Positions 38,718 through 45,165 of a DNA stretch of 64,000 nucleotides are shown here, piece after piece. Each line of letters starts with the position of its first letter. Position 1 is the first letter of the stretch. Source of the DNA: Anaerolineae bacterium (lineage in GTDB: Bacteria; Chloroflexota; Anaerolineae; B4-G1; DUEL01); the NCBI GenBank assembly GCA_041082215.1, contig JBDOIF010000120.1, forward strand, positions 1 to 64,000, given 5' to 3'. Position numbers and translations under genes: made by a program. The notes beneath the pieces were generated by a model. That model made no database searches and was not told the DNA's origin. It saw nothing but the letters and a program-made list of their open reading frames with translations.

Positions 38718-39626
38718 ATGAGGGCTTCTTCCGACAATCCGACTGCGTCGTTCCCCCCTCATCTGGGGCTGGTAGTGGGGGTTCTGGCTGCGTCCACGGC
38801 CTCCACGCTGATCCGGCTGGCCCAGGCGGAGGTGGCGTCGCTGGCGGTGGCTGCCTGGCGGCTCACGCTGGCCTCGCTGATCCTGGCTCCTTTTGCCCTT
38901 GCCACGCGGCGGGAGGAGCTGCGCACGCTGAGCCGTAGGGAGTGGGGGCTGGCGTTCATGGCCGGAACCCTTCTGGCGCTCCACTTTGCCACCTGGATCA
39001 CCTCCCTTGCCCTCACCTCCGTCGCCGCTTCGGTGGTGCTGGTCTCCACCAGCCCCCTCTTTGCCGGCGTGGCCTCTCACCTTATCCTGAAAGAGCGGCT
39101 CACCCGGCCCGTGGTCATCGGGCTGGTGGTGGCGGTTGTGGGTTCGGCGGTCATCGGGGCGGGGGATGTGGGGATCGGCGCCCACCGGCTGCTGGGCGAC
39201 CTGCTGGCGCTGGTTGGCGCGCTGGCGGTGGCGGGGTACTTCCTGATCGGGCGGCGGCTGCGGGCGCGGCTTTCGCTCCTGGGCTACGTCTTTCCGGTGT
39301 ACGGCTCGGCGGCAGTGATCCTGATGATCGTGGCCGCCGTGGCCCGGGTGCCGTTGAGGGGCTATCCTTCCATCTCCTGGCTCTGGCTCCTCCTGGTGGC
39401 GCTGGTGCCTCAGATAGTGGGCCATTCCTCCCTCAACTGGGCCCTCCGTCACCTGACGGCGACCTACGTGACCATCGCCGCGCTGGGCGAACCCATCGGC
39501 TCGACCATCCTGGCCTGGCTTTTGCTGGGGGAGCCTCCCACACCGGTCGCACTGGTCGGAGGGGTCCTGATCCTGACCGGCATCGCCATCGCCAGCCTTC
39601 CCGCACCGGGGGGAGAGGCCGGGTGA
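38718..39626 (+). CDS. DMT/EamA family transporter
   Basis: 10-TM, AAWRL, LALHFATWITSL.LTSVA, GHSSLNWAL, GEPIGS; ATG 38718. Confidence 0.9.
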   Translation: MRASSDNPTASFPPHLGLVVGVLAASTASTLIRLAQAEVASLAVAAWRLTLASLILAPFALATRREELRTLSRREWGLAFMAGTLLALHFATWITSLALTSVAASVVLVSTSPLFAGVASHLILKERLTRPVVIGLVVAVVGSAVIGAGDVGIGAHRLLGDLLALVGALAVAGYFLIGRRLRARLSLLGYVFPVYGSAAVILMIVAAVARVPLRGYPSISWLWLLLVALVPQIVGHSSLNWALRHLTATYVTIAALGEPIGSTILAWLLLGEPPTPVALVGGVLILTGIAIASLPAPGGEAG

Positions 39627-39630
39627 GGCG

Positions 39631-40791
39631 TTATGGGGCCAGGAAGATTCCCTGCACCCGGGCGGCGTAGGCTGCGCTCTCGGCGTCGTCCGTGAGGAAC
39701 TCGATCTCCTCCGGGCTGGATACCCCCAGGCCGAGGGAGACGGCGCGAGCGATCTGCTCCTGTTCGAAAATCGGCCCCTGTTCCACCTCCGGCGTCGTGC
39801 CGAAGAGCCGCAGGATCGCCACACCCACCGCGTCCAGCGCCACCCGATCGGTCCCTGCCAGCACCACCTCTGCTGAAACCCGTTCCCCCCGGTCCGGCCC
39901 GCCGGTGGCGAAGGCTTCCACTCCATCCACCACGACCAGTGCGGGCTGGTAGGCTGTGTTGATCTCGGCGATCATCCGCCGCTGGTGGGGCGAACTGTGC
40001 AGTTCGGCCATGTAGTTGTACCCGTCCGGCCCGTACTTAGCCACCATCCCCACTGAATTCTTCAGGGAGAGCGTGAAGTGCCCACCGTAGCGGTGGGTCT
40101 TCAGGCAGCAGGTCTGTACCACGACGTCGGCCTCCAGGATGGGGCGGGCGAAGAGGAAGCCCCGCGACCAGTGGCTGTCCGGCGGCTGGACGGGAACCCA
40201 ATCCTCCTCGCCCAGCTCATCCAGGACCAGTGGGGTGAAAGCCAGCTCGTCCGCCAGGTCGAAGACGCCCTTTTGTTCCATTACCCGCCGCGTGTTCCCC
40301 ATCCCGCTGCGGTCGGCCACCACGACCGACGAGGCTCCCCCTTGCCAGAGAGCCTCCACCAGTGTGCGGAGGACGTCGTTGTGGGTGGAGCCAGGGGCCG
40401 GATCGGCGCTGTTGAAGTTGGGCTTGAGGAGGACGTTTCGGCCTTCCAGCGGGGGGGGTCCCAGCAGTGCCAGGGCGCGGCGGACGCCTTCGGCCCGATC
40501 CGTCGTTTTGATGAAGGCCACCCGCGCGCCGGACGGCCGGGTTGCCGGCCCCGCCGTCGGGGAGGGGGAGGGGGCTGGGGCCTGCGTCGTCGGCGCAGGG
40601 GAGGGGCGCAGCGACGGGCCTGGCGTGGCCGGCTCTGCCGTCGCTGCGGTTTGCCGGGGTGTCCGTTCACACGCTGCCAGGTGGGAGGCCAGTCCCGCAA
40701 GGCCGATCAGCGCCGCCAGACGGGCCAGGAAGGCTCGCCGCCCCATCCACCGGCCCGCTTCTGCCGGTTCCCGAAAAAGGTTTCCGTCCAT
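39631..40791 (-). CDS. DUF362 domain protein with Tat signal
   Basis: GRRAFL twin-arginine, LAAC lipobox-like, PT linker, VLLKPN, LKTH, TLSLKN..G, DRVALD. Confidence 0.82.
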   Translation of the reverse strand: MDGNLFREPAEAGRWMGRRAFLARLAALIGLAGLASHLAACERTPRQTAATAEPATPGPSLRPSPAPTTQAPAPSPSPTAGPATRPSGARVAFIKTTDRAEGVRRALALLGPPPLEGRNVLLKPNFNSADPAPGSTHNDVLRTLVEALWQGGASSVVVADRSGMGNTRRVMEQKGVFDLADELAFTPLVLDELGEEDWVPVQPPDSHWSRGFLFARPILEADVVVQTCCLKTHRYGGHFTLSLKNSVGMVAKYGPDGYNYMAELHSSPHQRRMIAEINTAYQPALVVVDGVEAFATGGPDRGERVSAEVVLAGTDRVALDAVGVAILRLFGTTPEVEQGPIFEQEQIARAVSLGLGVSSPEEIEFLTDDAESAAYAARVQGIFLAP

Positions 40792-40834
40792 CGTCCCCAC
40801 CTTTTGTCGCCAAAAAAGGAGAAGAGGACCTCAT

Positions 40835-41305
40835 TTATTTATTTAGCTGGTCCAGCAGGCCCAGCAGTTCCTCATTGGGCGGGATATCGCTCATCGAATG
40901 GCCGTAATGGATCCAGCGGACCAGCCCCTCCCGATCCACGATAGCCTGGGCCGGCATCCGCCCCAGTTTGAAGAGGTTGACCTCCTGGCCATACCGCTTG
41001 AGGACGGTGTGTTTCGGGTCGGGCAGGCCGACGAAGGGCAACTGTTCCTCTTCCCAGTAACGGGCGAAGGACGGGGCATCCTCCGGCCCCACGACGATGA
41101 CCTCGGCGCCGCGTTGGGTGAACGCCTCGTAGTCCTGGCGCAACTGCGCCATATGCCGGCGGCAGAAGGGTCATATAAAGCCCCGGTTGAAGACCAGGAC
41201 GACGTGTTTCTTCCCCCGGTAGTCGGAGAGGCGCACTGTCCGCCCCCGGAAATCCTCCAGGGCGAAGTCAGGGGCCTCTAAGTTGATCTCCACCCGTTTC
41301 GCCAT
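40835..41305 (-). CDS. AhpC/TSA peroxiredoxin-like selenoprotein (in-frame UGA = Sec at codon 45)
   Basis: MAKRVEINLEAPDFALEDFRGRTVRLSDYRGKKHVVLVFNRGFI-TGA(41173-41171)-PFCRRHMAQLRQDY...; continuous thioredoxin fold with UxxC; downstream hairpin; SD GGAGGG. Confidence 0.85.
41136..41151 (-). promoter_or_regulatory. Putative bacterial SECIS hairpin
   Basis: UGGCGC-AGUU-GCGCCA beginning 19 nt after the UGA. Confidence 0.55.
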
Positions 41306-41340
41306 TTCGCTCCCTCCAGAGTCCCGATGCAGGCTTTACA

Positions 41341-41512
41341 AGCCACCGGACAGTTTTGTAGATCGCGAATCCTGCGAATCGGGCAAATGACACGAATGGT
41401 GCGAAACAGGCCCCAATAAGGCCAGAACTGCCTGGAAACATTCGTGACATTCGGTCCGTTCGCATCATTCGCGATAAGCTTCCTTGGCTCCGACAAAAGT
41501 GTCAGGTGGCTA
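41341..41512. mobile_element. MITE-like non-autonomous element
   Basis: 19-bp TIRs AGCCACCGGACAGTTTTGT / ACAAAAGTGTCAGGTGGCT (17/19 match), flanked by direct repeat GCAGGCTTTACA (41329-41340, 41513-41524); internal inverted 9-nt-period CGAAT arrays. Confidence 0.8.
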
Positions 41513-41519
41513 GCAGGCT

Positions 41520-41993
41520 TTACAAAGTCGGCGCGCGGTAATCGGCCGGTGTGCCCCAGCGTTCCACCCGGCGGTAGCGGGGCTGGCGGGCATGAAAGTG
41601 TACCTGGATCGGCGCCTGGTCCAGCTCGGGGTGTGCCTCAAAGAACTCCCTGTCTCCGTAGCGGAGCGCCTCCAGTGCCATGGGCAACTCGCGTCGGAAG
41701 AAGAAGTTGCGAAGAGCCGCCGGGCCGAAGACCATTCCCCCGCTGACGTGGCAGTGGACGTGTAGCGCAGGGCCGTCCTCTTCCTCTTTCCACTCTGCCA
41801 GCACTTCGTCGCGCATCAGTCGGGCGTACAGGCCGGAAAGCTGCTGCCGGTTGTACTCCAGACCCACCGTCAGGAACAACTCCCCCGTTGCATCGGAGTG
41901 AGTCAGTGTGTAGCGTCGGGGTATGGCCGGTCCCCCCCGCGTCACATCGCCGGTGAACCGCACATGCAGTTTCTCCGGATTCAACCTGGCCAT
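41520..41993 (-). CDS. Staygreen (SGR) family protein, Mg-dechelatase homolog
   Basis: PRRYTLTHSD, RDEVLAEW, LHVHCHVSG, ELPMALEA..YGD, VHFHA, ERWG. Confidence 0.92.
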   Translation of the reverse strand: MARLNPEKLHVRFTGDVTRGGPAIPRRYTLTHSDATGELFLTVGLEYNRQQLSGLYARLMRDEVLAEWKEEEDGPALHVHCHVSGGMVFGPAALRNFFFRRELPMALEALRYGDREFFEAHPELDQAPIQVHFHARQPRYRRVERWGTPADYRAPTL

Positions 41994-42081
41994 GCCCTCC
42001 TCCCTGCTTACCGCTCATAAGTCAACTGCGGCTCTGCACCCGCGGACGGCCGTCTCCTCAGTGCAGTTGATAAAGCGGCCG

Positions 42082-43068
42082 TCACCTCTGCCTCAGGAAT
42101 TCTTCTACTGCCCGGAGGAACGGCTCTGGACACTCCTCCTGCGGGATGTGGCCGCACTCGGGGATGACGACCAGTTCGGCCCCCGGGATTTCCCCCGCCA
42201 GGCGGATGCTCTGTTCGGTGGGGACGATGCGGTCGTCGTCGCCGGTGATCACCAGCACCGGCACCGTCACCTCGCCCAGCCGCTGGGGCAGATTCAGCGG
42301 ATGGCTGGCGCGGGTGACCTCCCATAACGCCCGGTCCCAATTCTCGACCCGGAACGGCCGGGCGTACCCCTCCCAGATTTCCGGCGTCAGTTTGTTCGGG
42401 TCGTGCCAGGCAGAGCGGCCGAGGTCCACGCCCCAGTTCTGGATGGAGCGGGCCACGAGCGGCCCGAGATGCCGCATCTGGGGGGTGTTGAGGAGGGGGC
42501 GCAGCCAGCCGGGCGTCCCCCCGCCTGTGTAGACCGCTGCATCCACCAGCACCAGCGCCTCCACCCGCTCCGGGTAGGTGAGCGCGGTGAGCAGCGCGAC
42601 CGTCCCGCCGGCGGAGTTGCCCACCAGGACCGCCCGCTCGATCCCCAACGCATCCATCAGCCCCACCGTTATGTCGGCCTGGGCCTCGGGGCTATAGGGG
42701 CTTAGCGCCGCTAAGCCCCTACCTTCCCCTTCCCACTCGCCGGGCATGGGGCGCTCGGTGAGGCCGAAGCCAGGCCGGTCGAAGGCGACGACCGTCCCCA
42801 TCTCCGAAAGCGGTCCCATCACCTCCCGCCAGGAGAAGGTGCTGGCGCCGAAGCCGTGGAGCAACATGAAGGCCGGTTCGCCCTCCCCGGCGATCTTGTA
42901 ATGAATGGTAATCCCGTTCACCTCGACAAACCGGCTATCCGGATCGGCCAACTGGTCCGGCGGCGCTGTCCCCTCCAGCGGCGGCACGGGCACCAGGAAG
43001 GGGCCCACCAGCAGGATGGCCAGGAACACCGCCAGGGCGATCAGCAGTCTGCGAAGCCAGGGTTTCAT
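42082..43068 (-). CDS. Membrane-anchored alpha/beta hydrolase
   Basis: N-terminal TM, LLHGFGAS, DRPGFG, nucleophile GNSAGG, GDDDRIVP, CGHIPQEE; SD AAGGAGG. Confidence 0.9.
   Translation of the reverse strand: MKPWLRRLLIALAVFLAILLVGPFLVPVPPLEGTAPPDQLADPDSRFVEVNGITIHYKIAGEGEPAFMLLHGFGASTFSWREVMGPLSEMGTVVAFDRPGFGLTERPMPGEWEGEGRGLAALSPYSPEAQADITVGLMDALGIERAVLVGNSAGGTVALLTALTYPERVEALVLVDAAVYTGGGTPGWLRPLLNTPQMRHLGPLVARSIQNWGVDLGRSAWHDPNKLTPEIWEGYARPFRVENWDRALWEVTRASHPLNLPQRLGEVTVPVLVITGDDDRIVPTEQSIRLAGEIPGAELVVIPECGHIPQEECPEPFLRAVEEFLRQR
42695..42722. repeat. GTAG-REP inserted in frame in the hydrolase gene
   Basis: Perfect 12-bp stem TAGGGGCTTAGC-GCC-GCTAAGCCCCTA with GTAG foot on minus. Confidence 0.75.
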
Positions 43069-43137
43069 TGTGCCTCCTTTACTTAATTACTGACCATCAT
43101 ACACCAGAGTACAGGAAGTGCAAGGGAGTTTTCCAGA

Positions 43138-43166
43138 TTGACAGAAGCACCGGCTGATGATATACT
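43138..43166 (+). promoter_or_regulatory. sigma70 promoter
   Basis: TTGACA-17-TATACT with extended TG. Confidence 0.72.
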
Positions 43167-43212
43167 CCCCCCGCAAGGACGTCGGCGCATCCCCCAGCGA
43201 ACGGAGGTGAGC

Positions 43213-45165
43213 ATGGGCGAGGCCCCTCCCCGGTACGATTATCTCTTCGTCAGCGACCTGCACGTCTCTCTGGGGTACGATCCTGAGCGGCGTGCCTACC
43301 ATGCCCGGGAGGATTTCTTCTTCGACGAGCCCTTCTTCCGCTGGCTTCGCTGGGCCGATGCCGGCTGCCCCCCCGACAGGCGTTGGGAGCTGGTCTTCGT
43401 CGGTGACGGCTTCGATTTTCTCCCTATTGATCTGGGGGTGGTCCACCAGTACTTCGAGGCCCGCGACCGCCGCCGCGAGCGGCTGGAGCTGGAAGACCGA
43501 AGACAGGTGGTGGCCTACTGGCAGCGGCAGTTCGGCGAGGAAGAGAGGCTCGCTCCGGAAGAGCGGGAGCCCGAGTGGGTGCGCTGGCTCCTGTTTGAAG
43601 ACGACGCGCTGGACGATCGGGTCCGTCTGGCTCCCCCCTCCCCCGGGCCGTTGAAGGCCCTTGCCGTCGAGGAGGCAGCTCCCCCTGTGCCGGACTGGGC
43701 GGTTTGCATCTACGAAGGGGTGCACCCTCCGGCAGGAGGGGAGGGCCGGCTGGTCGCCTCATCTCTCAGCCTGGGGCGGCCATTGGAGGGGCTTCGATTG
43801 ACGGAGGGGGAGGGCCGCCCCGCACGCCGGGCCATCAGCCGTGAAGAGGCTTTCGAACGGCGGTACGGTTTTCTCCCCACCCAGGCCAGGTCCATGGCCC
43901 GCCTCCACTTTATCTACCGGGGCCATTCCACCTTCTTCCGCGCCCTGGCCTGGTTTGTCGGGCGGGGGCACCGAATCACCTTCCTGCGCGGCAATCACGA
44001 CCTGGAACTCTTCTGGCCGGGGGTCCAGACCCTCCTCCGGCGACTGGTGGCCCAGGAATATCCGGCCGCCTTCGAGGGCGCCCCTCTTCCCCCGATGCCC
44101 GATCTGGAGGAGCATATCCGCTTCCGGCCCGGCTGGTTCTATTACCGTCCCGGCCTCTTCTACGCCGAGCACGGCAGCCAGTATGAACCGGTGGATTCCT
44201 GTCCTAACTTCATCCGCCCTCTGCTCCCTGCCGCTCCCCACCTCCTGAATCCGCCTGTCGGCAGCCTGGGAGTGACCACCGTCGTCGCCCGGATGGAGGA
44301 TGAGAACCCGGAGTGGGAAAATCGAGGCAAGCACGCCGTCGTGCTTCTGGAGCTGGTCCGGCGCTACCCCCATCAGGCATTCCTCATCCTCACCCGCCAC
44401 GTCCGCGACTTCCTGTGGATGGCCCAGCGGCTCTGGCAGGCGACGAAGGGAGGGGACCAGAAGCCCGCGGCGGAGGATTTCCGCCGATACGCGGCGGAGG
44501 CAGGGCTTCCCCAGGAGGAGGTGGAGGCGATCTACTGGCAATGGGACCCGCCCATTATGGTGCGCAGGCCGCTGGCCTGGCTCCTTTTCAGTCCCGGCGG
44601 CCATGTCGTCAAGGGGGTCCTGGCTTTGCTGGTATTCGGTGTAGGGGTGGGGGCTGCTCTCCTATGGTATCTGGTGATCGCCCCCGTCCTCTCCGCCCTG
44701 ATCCCTCCCAACTTCCTTTCCGCCACCATCGGTCCGGCGCTCCAGCTCCTGACCCGAATCCTGCTCTGGCTGGTCCCGCCCCTCGCCTGGGAATGGCTGC
44801 GCCGTCGCCTCGAAAGGTGGTATCCACACCCCCTCATGTACAGGGCCGCGCAGCGGGTCCATCAGCACCTGCGAAAAGTGGACCCCGACATCCGTTTCTA
44901 CATCCTGGGCCATGACCATAAGGCTGACGTGCGGGTTGTGGAGCAAAGACCTGCCCACAGACACGTCTACTATCTCAACACCGGCTGCTGGTTTCCTGAG
45001 TTTGCCGAAGGGGCCCGGAGGCTACAGACCCTGGGCCGGGATGTGCAGTTCACTTTCGTCCGGCTGGTCCAGCAGGAAGGGGGAGTGGAGGCCGAGCTGC
45101 TGCGCTGGAACGACGATGCGGGCCGCGCCGACCCCCAGATCGTCCCTCCCGCCCGATCGGAGTGA
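43213..45165 (+). CDS. Calcineurin-like metallophosphoesterase (LpxH-like motif set) with large inserts and TM segments
   Basis: SDLH, GDGFD, GNHD, EHG, GHDH, YLNTG; ATG 43213 with GGAGGTG. Confidence 0.78.
   Translation: MGEAPPRYDYLFVSDLHVSLGYDPERRAYHAREDFFFDEPFFRWLRWADAGCPPDRRWELVFVGDGFDFLPIDLGVVHQYFEARDRRRERLELEDRRQVVAYWQRQFGEEERLAPEEREPEWVRWLLFEDDALDDRVRLAPPSPGPLKALAVEEAAPPVPDWAVCIYEGVHPPAGGEGRLVASSLSLGRPLEGLRLTEGEGRPARRAISREEAFERRYGFLPTQARSMARLHFIYRGHSTFFRALAWFVGRGHRITFLRGNHDLELFWPGVQTLLRRLVAQEYPAAFEGAPLPPMPDLEEHIRFRPGWFYYRPGLFYAEHGSQYEPVDSCPNFIRPLLPAAPHLLNPPVGSLGVTTVVARMEDENPEWENRGKHAVVLLELVRRYPHQAFLILTRHVRDFLWMAQRLWQATKGGDQKPAAEDFRRYAAEAGLPQEEVEAIYWQWDPPIMVRRPLAWLLFSPGGHVVKGVLALLVFGVGVGAALLWYLVIAPVLSALIPPNFLSATIGPALQLLTRILLWLVPPLAWEWLRRRLERWYPHPLMYRAAQRVHQHLRKVDPDIRFYILGHDHKADVRVVEQRPAHRHVYYLNTGCWFPEFAEGARRLQTLGRDVQFTFVRLVQQEGGVEAELLRWNDDAGRADPQIVPPARSE

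Follow-up and report, generated by a model that had tools for sequence, protein, structure and literature searches.

Staygreen (SGR) of plants is a Mg-dechelatase that takes part in chlorophyll breakdown together with the Ser-Asp-His alpha/beta hydrolases PPH and CLD1, whose nucleophile elbow reads G-N-S-x-G-G, and prokaryotic SGR homologues are the presumed source of this plant chlorophyll-degradation enzyme. The homologue AbSGR-h from Anaerolineae bacterium SM23_63 is reported to have low substrate specificity and to dechelate chlorophyll a, chlorophyllide, protochlorophyllide and chlorophylls b and c in vitro (PMC11006732), and according to PMC8531759 it is unknown what natural role SGR homologues play in non-photosynthetic prokaryotes. 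Here we describe an SGR locus from another Anaerolineae bacterium (GenBank assembly GCA_041082215.1), located at 39631..43068 on the minus strand of the window, the 64,000-nt stretch of contig JBDOIF010000120.1 analysed in this work. According to Pfam and a reading of the open reading frames (ORFs), the locus comprises four head-to-tail genes encoding an alpha/beta hydrolase, SGR, an AhpC/TSA-fold selenoprotein and a DUF362 protein. These are the four co-oriented genes described in an earlier note on this DNA, and each has a Pfam match at the coordinates given there. We propose, with a probability of roughly 55%, that the locus is a reduced version of a gene set for defence against light and photo-oxidative damage that is widespread in Chloroflexota.

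The CarH/LitR systems are B12-photoreceptor regulons of non-phototrophic bacteria. Similar to these regulons, MerR-B12 regulators occur beside carotenoid and photolyase genes in 10 of the 82 SGR loci surveyed below, and one lies 42 kb away from the locus described here. However, the window itself has no such regulator, and there is no convincing operator at the hydrolase promoter. In described heliorhodopsin neighbourhoods, redox proteins and a hydrolase are found nearby, and a role in light-induced oxidative stress has been proposed (PMC8612252). Likewise, in relatives of the source organism heliorhodopsin fills the same slot as SGR, next to a peroxiredoxin-fold gene and a hydrolase, whereas the source genome has no heliorhodopsin. 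Literature searches found no publication on a link between heliorhodopsin and Staygreen, on which the main text of PMC8612252 is silent although its supplements may list it, and none on Staygreen with photolyase in bacteria. The available text of the two AbSGR-h papers (PMC8531759, PMC11006732) does not discuss gene context, whereas the SGR of the source genome sits between a membrane hydrolase and a selenoprotein. Like the plant pair of SGR and PPH/CLD1, the locus combines a Mg-dechelatase homologue with a Ser-Asp-His hydrolase, here encoded side by side. However, the hydrolase differs in its N-terminal anchor, the likeness to PPH seen so far is that of the fold, and it is mostly found without SGR (15 of 18 relatives). 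In addition, unlike in plant chlorophyll breakdown, no PAO-type ring-opening enzyme was seen, and the organism is apparently non-photosynthetic.

The SGR gene (41520..41993, minus strand) encodes 157 amino acids and matches PF12638 with 178.8 bits against a cut-off of 27. It aligns over residues 2-153 with the protein of PDB entry 7y5y (191.7 bits, E 7.9e-56), which is probably the crystal structure of AbSGR-h to which PMC11006732 refers. The protein belongs to the same family as AbSGR-h and shares its length and residue numbering. The residues Arg26, Tyr28, Thr29, Thr31, His32, Asp34, Asp62, Arg95 and Asp114 are retained and are invariant or nearly so in 22 homologues. The motifs T31-H32-S33-D34 and R61-D62-E63, pointed out in the earlier note, are indeed present, with most of their residues invariant in the 22 aligned homologues. 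In AbSGR-h, the mutations D34N and D62N abolish the activity of the soluble protein and H32A weakens it (PMC8531759). The catalytic residues His32, Asp34 and Asp62 and the structural residues Arg26, Tyr28, Thr29 and Asp114, as assigned in PMC8531759, are all kept here with identical numbering. The in vitro activity of an Anaerolineae homologue, which the earlier note had mentioned, is borne out by the dechelation of several chlorophyll derivatives reported in PMC11006732. Judged from its sequence, the SGR of the source genome is intact and catalytically plausible. Homologues with 53-64% identity are also found at 15 loci in contigs labelled Bathyarchaeia, Hadarchaeota, Nitrososphaeria, Hermodarchaeota and Euryarchaeota.

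Gene neighbourhoods were surveyed at 82 SGR loci besides the window, namely 80 from public assemblies taken at one genome per species and five from relatives, less three duplicates. Neighbouring genes were clustered, the clusters were named by Pfam, and the families were recounted by hidden Markov models over six-frame ORFs (E < 1e-8) at distances of up to 6 kb from SGR. An MFS (major facilitator superfamily) transporter was found in 23 of the 82 loci, 13 times within 300 bp of SGR, and heliorhodopsin in 14, of which 12 within 300 bp. Photolyase and DUF1475 were each found in 13 loci, a selenocysteine-type redox protein in 12, the MerR-B12 (CarH/LitR-type) regulator and YbgA/DUF1722 in 10 each, PlsY in 8, TspO in 7 and phytoene synthase in 4. 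CrtI-like proteins were counted in 12 and 11 loci with two models derived from separate neighbour clusters, and these two sets of loci may overlap. At least one light marker (heliorhodopsin, photolyase, YbgA, MerR-B12, CrtI, phytoene synthase or TspO) was present in 40 of the 82 loci. Among lipid genes, PlsY, DegV and DUF1295 recur. As a control, ABC ATPases were found in 15 loci, about the number expected by chance from 78 hits per 3.5-Mb genome and a 12-kb span. When 50 of the 80 public SGR genomes were searched whole, heliorhodopsin was present in 28 and lay within 6 kb of SGR in 11 of these 28, against an expectation, by our estimate, of fewer than 0.2 by chance.

The same survey revealed that membrane esterases recur beside SGR. 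The subfamily of the hydrolase, for which the earlier note had suggested searching SGR neighbourhoods, was present in 9 of the 82 loci, in 8 of them within 2 kb, on the same strand and in at least four gene orders. Abhydrolase_5 lay no more than 2 kb from SGR in 8 loci, in 7 cases at 300 nt or less, and one or both hydrolase families were present in 13, which leaves room for an esterase partner of SGR. In the loci L028, L029 and L040, a MerR-B12 regulator or MFS transporter gene, SGR, Abhydrolase_5 and the hydrolase subfamily follow one another on one strand, either overlapping slightly or separated by short gaps. Of the arrangements observed, this order best fits a putative light-controlled operon of SGR plus esterases. 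No phytol-oxidation, pigment-uptake, pigment catabolic or ring-opening genes were found among the recurrent neighbour families. Same-strand clusters of SGR with light sensors, light-repair genes and membrane esterases make the role of SGR testable.

Comparison with 40 related genomes revealed a different constant partner for the hydrolase. SGR was found in 5 of these relatives, an orthologue of the hydrolase (59-85% identity) in 18 and an orthologue of the selenoprotein in 12. The hydrolase did not co-occur with the dechelatase across genomes, as just 3 of the 18 hydrolase-bearing relatives also have SGR and 15 lack it. Since the hydrolase is present in 18 of the 40 relatives and 15 of the 18 are without SGR, it is not a partner specific to SGR. 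Of the 10 relatives with both hydrolase and selenoprotein, in turn, 8 encode the two together on a single contig. The two genes directly adjoin each other in six relatives (G008, G010, G012, G014, G016 and G021), and heliorhodopsin (PF18761) lies between them in two others (G015 and G020). In one public genome (L020), the order is MFS-hydrolase-heliorhodopsin-SGR-selenoprotein, and a second (L022) has the same order from the hydrolase on, where its contig ends. The locus L017 in the relative G019 has the order MFS-hydrolase-SGR, followed by a degraded copy of the selenoprotein gene. This copy downstream of SGR in G019 (L017, L104) is a short remnant, and an intact copy is located elsewhere in the genome (G019:C94).

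The slot between the hydrolase and the selenoprotein is thus empty or occupied by heliorhodopsin in relatives, holds heliorhodopsin together with SGR in two public genomes, and holds SGR in the window and in one relative. As read from these gene orders, the stable backbone is the hydrolase plus the selenoprotein, and SGR and heliorhodopsin are putatively interchangeable cargo in the slot between them. At the window locus SGR is found together with recurrent neighbour families, namely a membrane esterase and a peroxiredoxin-fold redox protein. The hydrolase-SGR partnership assumed in the earlier note holds as a recurrent same-strand link (9 of 82 loci), but the constant neighbour of the hydrolase is the selenoprotein. 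The sharing of heliorhodopsin's slot inside a predicted hydrolase-selenoprotein operon offers a handle on the natural role of SGR.

The selenoprotein gene (40835..41305, minus strand) has 156 codons and matches PF00578 (E 1.3e-26, 93.4 bits), with the motif U45-P-F-C48. Codon 45 is a UGA selenocysteine codon (41171..41173, minus strand), and all 22 distinct orthologous sequences carry TGA at this position, within NRGFx-U-PFC and with conserved sequence on both sides. Database homologues carry cysteine at the selenocysteine position, in the form xCPFC, xCVFC or xCPYC (P0122, P0125, P0136, P0151 and P0176). The source genome holds a tRNA-Sec together with selB (350 bits), selA (565.5 bits) and selD (330.4 bits), all above their cut-offs. 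A SECIS (selenocysteine insertion sequence)-like hairpin, UGGCGC-AGUU-GCGCCA (41136..41151, minus strand), starts 19 nt after the UGA. Its codons +8 to +11 (GCG CAG TTG CGC) are free of synonymous changes in 22/22, 22/22, 22/22 and 21/22 sequences. The lone change, CGT, retains a G-U pair, and there is no covariation to count. Nearby conserved residues with synonymous codons use two to four codons, except Cys +3 (TGC in 22/22). The hairpin was seen in both alifold and single-sequence folds, with an unremarkable folding energy (z -0.5). The decoding of codon 45 as selenocysteine is a well supported prediction. The selD gene itself (C139:20928-21848, minus strand, locus L099) contains one in-frame TGA and therefore probably encodes a selenoprotein too.

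The selenoprotein does not resemble a typical peroxiredoxin (Prx) around its active site. Compared with the Prx structure 2ywn, U45 takes the place of the Thr of the TxxC motif and C48 that of the peroxidatic Cys, whereas in comparison with ResA the U-x-x-C motif aligns with C-x-x-C, with U45 in the position of the first Cys. The peroxidatic TxxC motif is absent from the protein, and no Prx equivalog model reaches its NCBIfam cut-off. Among all NCBIfam models none reaches its cut-off, the best being NF040769 (SelL-related redox protein) with 79.9 against 120 bits. We therefore assign the protein, on its motif and alignments, as a predicted Prx-fold UxxC redox protein rather than a typical peroxiredoxin. 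Of the seleno-peroxiredoxin named in the earlier note, the selenoprotein part is upheld by the TGA in 22/22 sequences and by the selenocysteine machinery, but the typical Prx part is contradicted by the missing TxxC motif. Described bacterial UxxC Prx-like or thioredoxin-fold selenoproteins likewise have the AhpC/TSA fold, selenocysteine as the first residue of a CxxC-type motif, and homologues with Cys. In the public gene calls returned by the protein search, members of the family are either truncated, starting at MAQLRQDY with about 104-110 amino acids, or are read with W at the TGA (P0133, P0186, P0192, P0194 and others; P0123, P0124 and P0130). Because it is shortened or read as W, the family appears to be mis-annotated in those records, and the present analysis documents this.

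The first gene of the locus (42082..43068, minus strand) encodes a membrane-anchored alpha/beta hydrolase of 328 amino acids (PF00561, E 1.3e-31). The motifs HGFGAS and GNSAGG reported in the earlier note are located at residues 71-76 and 150-155. The catalytic triad Ser152, Asp277-279 and His307 is invariant in 17 orthologues and 24 database homologues, and such a Ser-Asp-His triad is common to very many unrelated hydrolases. The AlphaFold model (pLDDT, the predicted local distance difference test, 90.4) shows an N-terminal helix at residues 3-25, a normal alpha/beta core and a helical lid. No NCBIfam model reaches its cut-off, and the best NCBIfam and PDB matches, PcaD, BchO-like, MCP hydrolases and esterases, fall below the cut-offs. 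Sequence searches of the PDB gave no specific assignment but generic metagenomic esterases, C-C hydrolases and enol-lactonases, the ESM Atlas yielded generic alpha/beta hydrolase clusters alone, and Foldseek with the hydrolase model returned at least 500 generic alpha/beta hydrolase matches. As sequence and fold searches return generic relatives alone, the GNSxGG elbow is no evidence for a phytyl esterase.

The phospholipase A1 PlaF (6i8w) is the sole match seen to span the N-terminal helix (residues 6-325, 89.6 bits). Like the hydrolase, this membrane protein of Pseudomonas aeruginosa is described with a single N-terminal anchor helix followed by an alpha/beta domain (PMC9132575). However, its identity to the hydrolase is about 25%, it ranks 11th in Foldseek, and C-C hydrolases and soluble esterases score equally well or better. 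Two cysteines that flank His307, Cys305 and Cys313 (C-G-H-x-P-Q-E-E-C), do not vary among the 24 aligned homologues. They may be joined by a disulfide near the active site, either structural or redox-sensitive; the constant neighbour of the hydrolase is a UxxC redox protein. In the relative G008 (L108), short tandem repeats of the GCGATAA type are found about 100 nt upstream of the hydrolase, directly before the start.

Based on these comparisons, we propose how the locus might work. The source organism appears to be non-phototrophic as far as can be seen from its genome (96% complete), in which neither Photo_RC (reaction-centre L/M) nor BchH was found. SGR would remove Mg from chlorophyll-type pigments that are met in a phototroph-rich habitat and not made by the organism itself, which may serve to limit photosensitised damage. 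The hydrolase would hydrolyse an ester bond of a substrate that is embedded in the membrane, which may be a pigment ester or, similar to PlaF action, a damaged phospholipid. The selenoprotein would reduce peroxides or disulfides that arise from photosensitised damage. Since lipid genes are repeatedly found near SGR and the hydrolase is built like PlaF, it is equally plausible that the hydrolase-selenoprotein pair repairs peroxidised membrane lipid. As SGR is accompanied elsewhere by genes for light sensing and light repair, protection fits better than a harvest of phytol or Mg, and nutrient scavenging by the locus is less likely. A bolder scheme, which we regard as rather doubtful, is a dedicated, light-linked pathway by which non-phototrophic Chloroflexota living among phototrophs dismantle foreign (bacterio)chlorophyll dissolved in their own membranes. 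In such a pathway, Staygreen would strip the Mg, the membrane esterases (the hydrolase subfamily and Abhydrolase_5) would cut the ester tail, and an MFS pump or TspO would remove the macrocycle. The selenocysteine redox protein would mop up peroxides, and heliorhodopsin, which shares the operon slot, would act as a light switch. If true, this pathway would give bacterial Staygreen and heliorhodopsin a physiological role.

Several observations weigh against a light-defence role. Heliorhodopsin (PF18761), photolyase and TspO were not found in the source genome (96% complete), and because these strongest light markers are missing there, the link to light rests on other genomes. Of the 82 loci, 42 lack any light marker, many of them on short contigs, and among the loci counted as archaeal (15 by label plus L047) only 5 of 16 have one within 6 kb. 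The SGR loci, taken from related genomes, are not independent observations. Pheophytin and pheophorbide also act as photosensitisers, so that removal of Mg does not by itself detoxify the pigment. By the positive-inside rule, applied by eye, the domain of the hydrolase is probably oriented outward, and SGR and the selenoprotein have no signal peptide by eye. With the hydrolase outside and the other two proteins in the cytoplasm, a shared soluble substrate is unlikely. In addition, a search of the hydrolase promoter gave no convincing CarH-type operator. The 170 nt upstream of the hydrolase and the 170 nt upstream of the MerR-B12 gene, compared by 10-mers with up to one mismatch, have two GC-rich, chance-like words in common and no others, and the hydrolase promoter contains a single TGTAC.

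The locus might instead have no shared pathway at all: the hydrolase and selenoprotein would be a membrane-lipid remodelling or redox pair of their own, SGR, like heliorhodopsin in relatives, would have landed in a permissive intergenic slot, and dechelation would be a promiscuous side activity of an enzyme whose native substrate may be something other than a chlorophyll. We consider this doubtful, if less so than the dismantling pathway above. Eight relatives have the pair but no SGR, the distribution of SGR is patchy (5 of 40), and the slot has also accepted a miniature inverted-repeat transposable element (MITE). The recurrence of PlsY, DegV and DUF1295 in SGR loci and the end-to-end alignment of the hydrolase with PlaF, anchor helix included (PMC9132575), are consistent with a lipid function, and Obata et al. 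2019 describe the bacterial activity as promiscuous in their title. However, SGR is repeatedly linked to the selenoprotein and to the hydrolase in differing gene orders, also where SGR identity is as low as 55%, and passive synteny does not predict this. The tight spacing before the MITE insertion (30 nt with a ribosome-binding site) and the strong conservation of the catalytic residues also argue against independent genes. Decay is another explanation, with heliorhodopsin, photolyase and TspO already lost, the operon split by the MITE, and SGR heading for loss. It would account for the absence of these three genes, the position of the MITE between SGR and the selenoprotein gene, and the degraded selenoprotein copy beside SGR in the nearest SGR-bearing genome (L017/G019). 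Moreover, no RNA contig covers SGR in the sole library with the organism, in which depth is very low. Nevertheless, the SGR ORF has its full length and every functional residue, none of the four genes is disrupted, the MITE spared both the stop codon of SGR and the ribosome-binding site behind it, and no terminator-like site was predicted between the genes. We regard a decaying remnant as very improbable.

The earlier note had favoured a chlorophyll-scavenging module, in which SGR dechelates and the hydrolase dephytylates foreign (bacterio)chlorophyll for phytol or Mg, with the selenoprotein limiting oxidative stress. The intact SGR, the dechelation of chlorophylls by an Anaerolineae homologue in vitro (PMC11006732), the presence of one or both esterase families near SGR in 13 of 82 loci and the hot-spring habitat signal described below all speak for it. 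However, the hydrolase is mostly found without SGR (15 of 18 hydrolase-bearing relatives) and has the selenoprotein as its constant partner. The recurrent neighbours of SGR are sensors and repair genes instead of genes for phytol oxidation, pigment uptake or ring opening, and none of the NCBIfam or PDB matches of the hydrolase ties it to phytyl esterases. According to PMC5853334, the PPH family belongs to plants and green algae and is absent from cyanobacteria. Scavenging thus keeps an intact SGR and the recurrence of esterases beside it, but its hydrolase mostly lacks SGR and its catabolic neighbours are missing, which makes it unlikely, if less so than decay. Protection against light and photo-oxidative damage remains the reading that we prefer.

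The MITE with its target duplication extends over 41329..41524 (no strand assigned) between SGR and the selenoprotein gene. The element itself is 172 bp long (41341..41512), has the inverted ends AGCCACC/GGTGGCT, and is flanked by a 12-bp target-site duplication, TGTAAAGCCTGC, at 41513-41524 and 41329-41340. It matches 17 places in the source genome, the window copy included. Five copies were aligned, the others being C5:16341-16518, C150:26460-26637, C26:28033-28203 and C83:13636-13807, and target duplications in the family are about 10-12 bp. The SGR stop codon lies inside the target duplication, so that the insertion left the SGR ORF intact. Deleting the MITE and one duplicate leaves exactly 30 nt from the SGR stop to the next ATG, as the earlier note had calculated, and this ancestral spacing carries a GGAGGGAG ribosome-binding site. 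As RNA, the MITE folds into a long hairpin (-89.2 kcal/mol, z -3.6) without a U tract behind it.

The gaps between the genes are 88 nt for hydrolase-SGR, 214 nt for SGR-selenoprotein (30 nt without the MITE) and 34 nt for selenoprotein-DUF362, and a site scan predicted no terminator-like sites between the four genes. The promoter-like site of the earlier note (43096..43123, minus strand) exists as written, with TTGCAC at 43123-43118, a 16-nt spacer and TATGAT at 43101-43096. It lies 27 nt upstream of the hydrolase ATG, with an AAGGAGG ribosome-binding site between. However, it has just 8 of 12 consensus matches and falls under the scan threshold, and the promoter scan of 39300-43400 listed one site, on the opposite strand, against 0.4 expected from shuffles. 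The site is not conserved upstream of orthologues, as the upstream regions of 17 orthologous hydrolase genes differ. For this reason, and because many of these regions are directly behind another gene, it cannot be footprinted. We take TTGCAC-16-TATGAT as a weak match that provides no evidence of a promoter.

The DUF362 protein (39631..40800, minus strand; probable start ATG 40791) has 389 amino acids and matches PF04015 (E 1.7e-43). By eye it contains a twin-arginine motif, GRRAFLA, a lipobox-like LAAC and a Pro/Ala/Thr-rich linker. A DUF362 gene was found near SGR in one of the 82 other loci, at 2.3 kb and with 32% identity, and none lies beside the selenoprotein gene in the relatives' loci examined, so that the source genome is the sole case. 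The earlier note had counted this gene as a member of the module; it is not in the conserved set and is, by these comparisons, apparently a local downstream addition outside the conserved unit.

Exact-matching short contigs were found in a hot-spring RNA library (X2) at 39300-39422, 39697-39920, 40444-40735 and 43343-43500, all at very low depth. These exact matches suggest that the organism or a near strain lives in a hot spring. Two raw-read RNA runs gave 0 reads, and two contig sets gave a few short low-depth pieces, none covering SGR. The MerR-B12 regulator lies together with a DUF1731 SDR (short-chain dehydrogenase/reductase) on the same contig, 42 kb away (C29:85258-87455, locus L124). 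Its gene is preceded by TGTACA/TATACA repeats and a TTGACA-17-TATACT promoter; the remainder of the cluster is unseen because the contig ends 200 bp later. The locus is bounded downstream by a convergent EamA transporter gene and upstream by a divergent gene on the plus strand (43138/43210-45165, 651-675 amino acids) without a Pfam match. By eye, the product of the divergent gene shows metallophosphoesterase-like DxH, GNHD and GHDH motifs and hydrophobic segments. The gene stands behind the best promoter-like site of the region, TTGACA-17-TATACT, which has 11 of 12 consensus matches and a TG.

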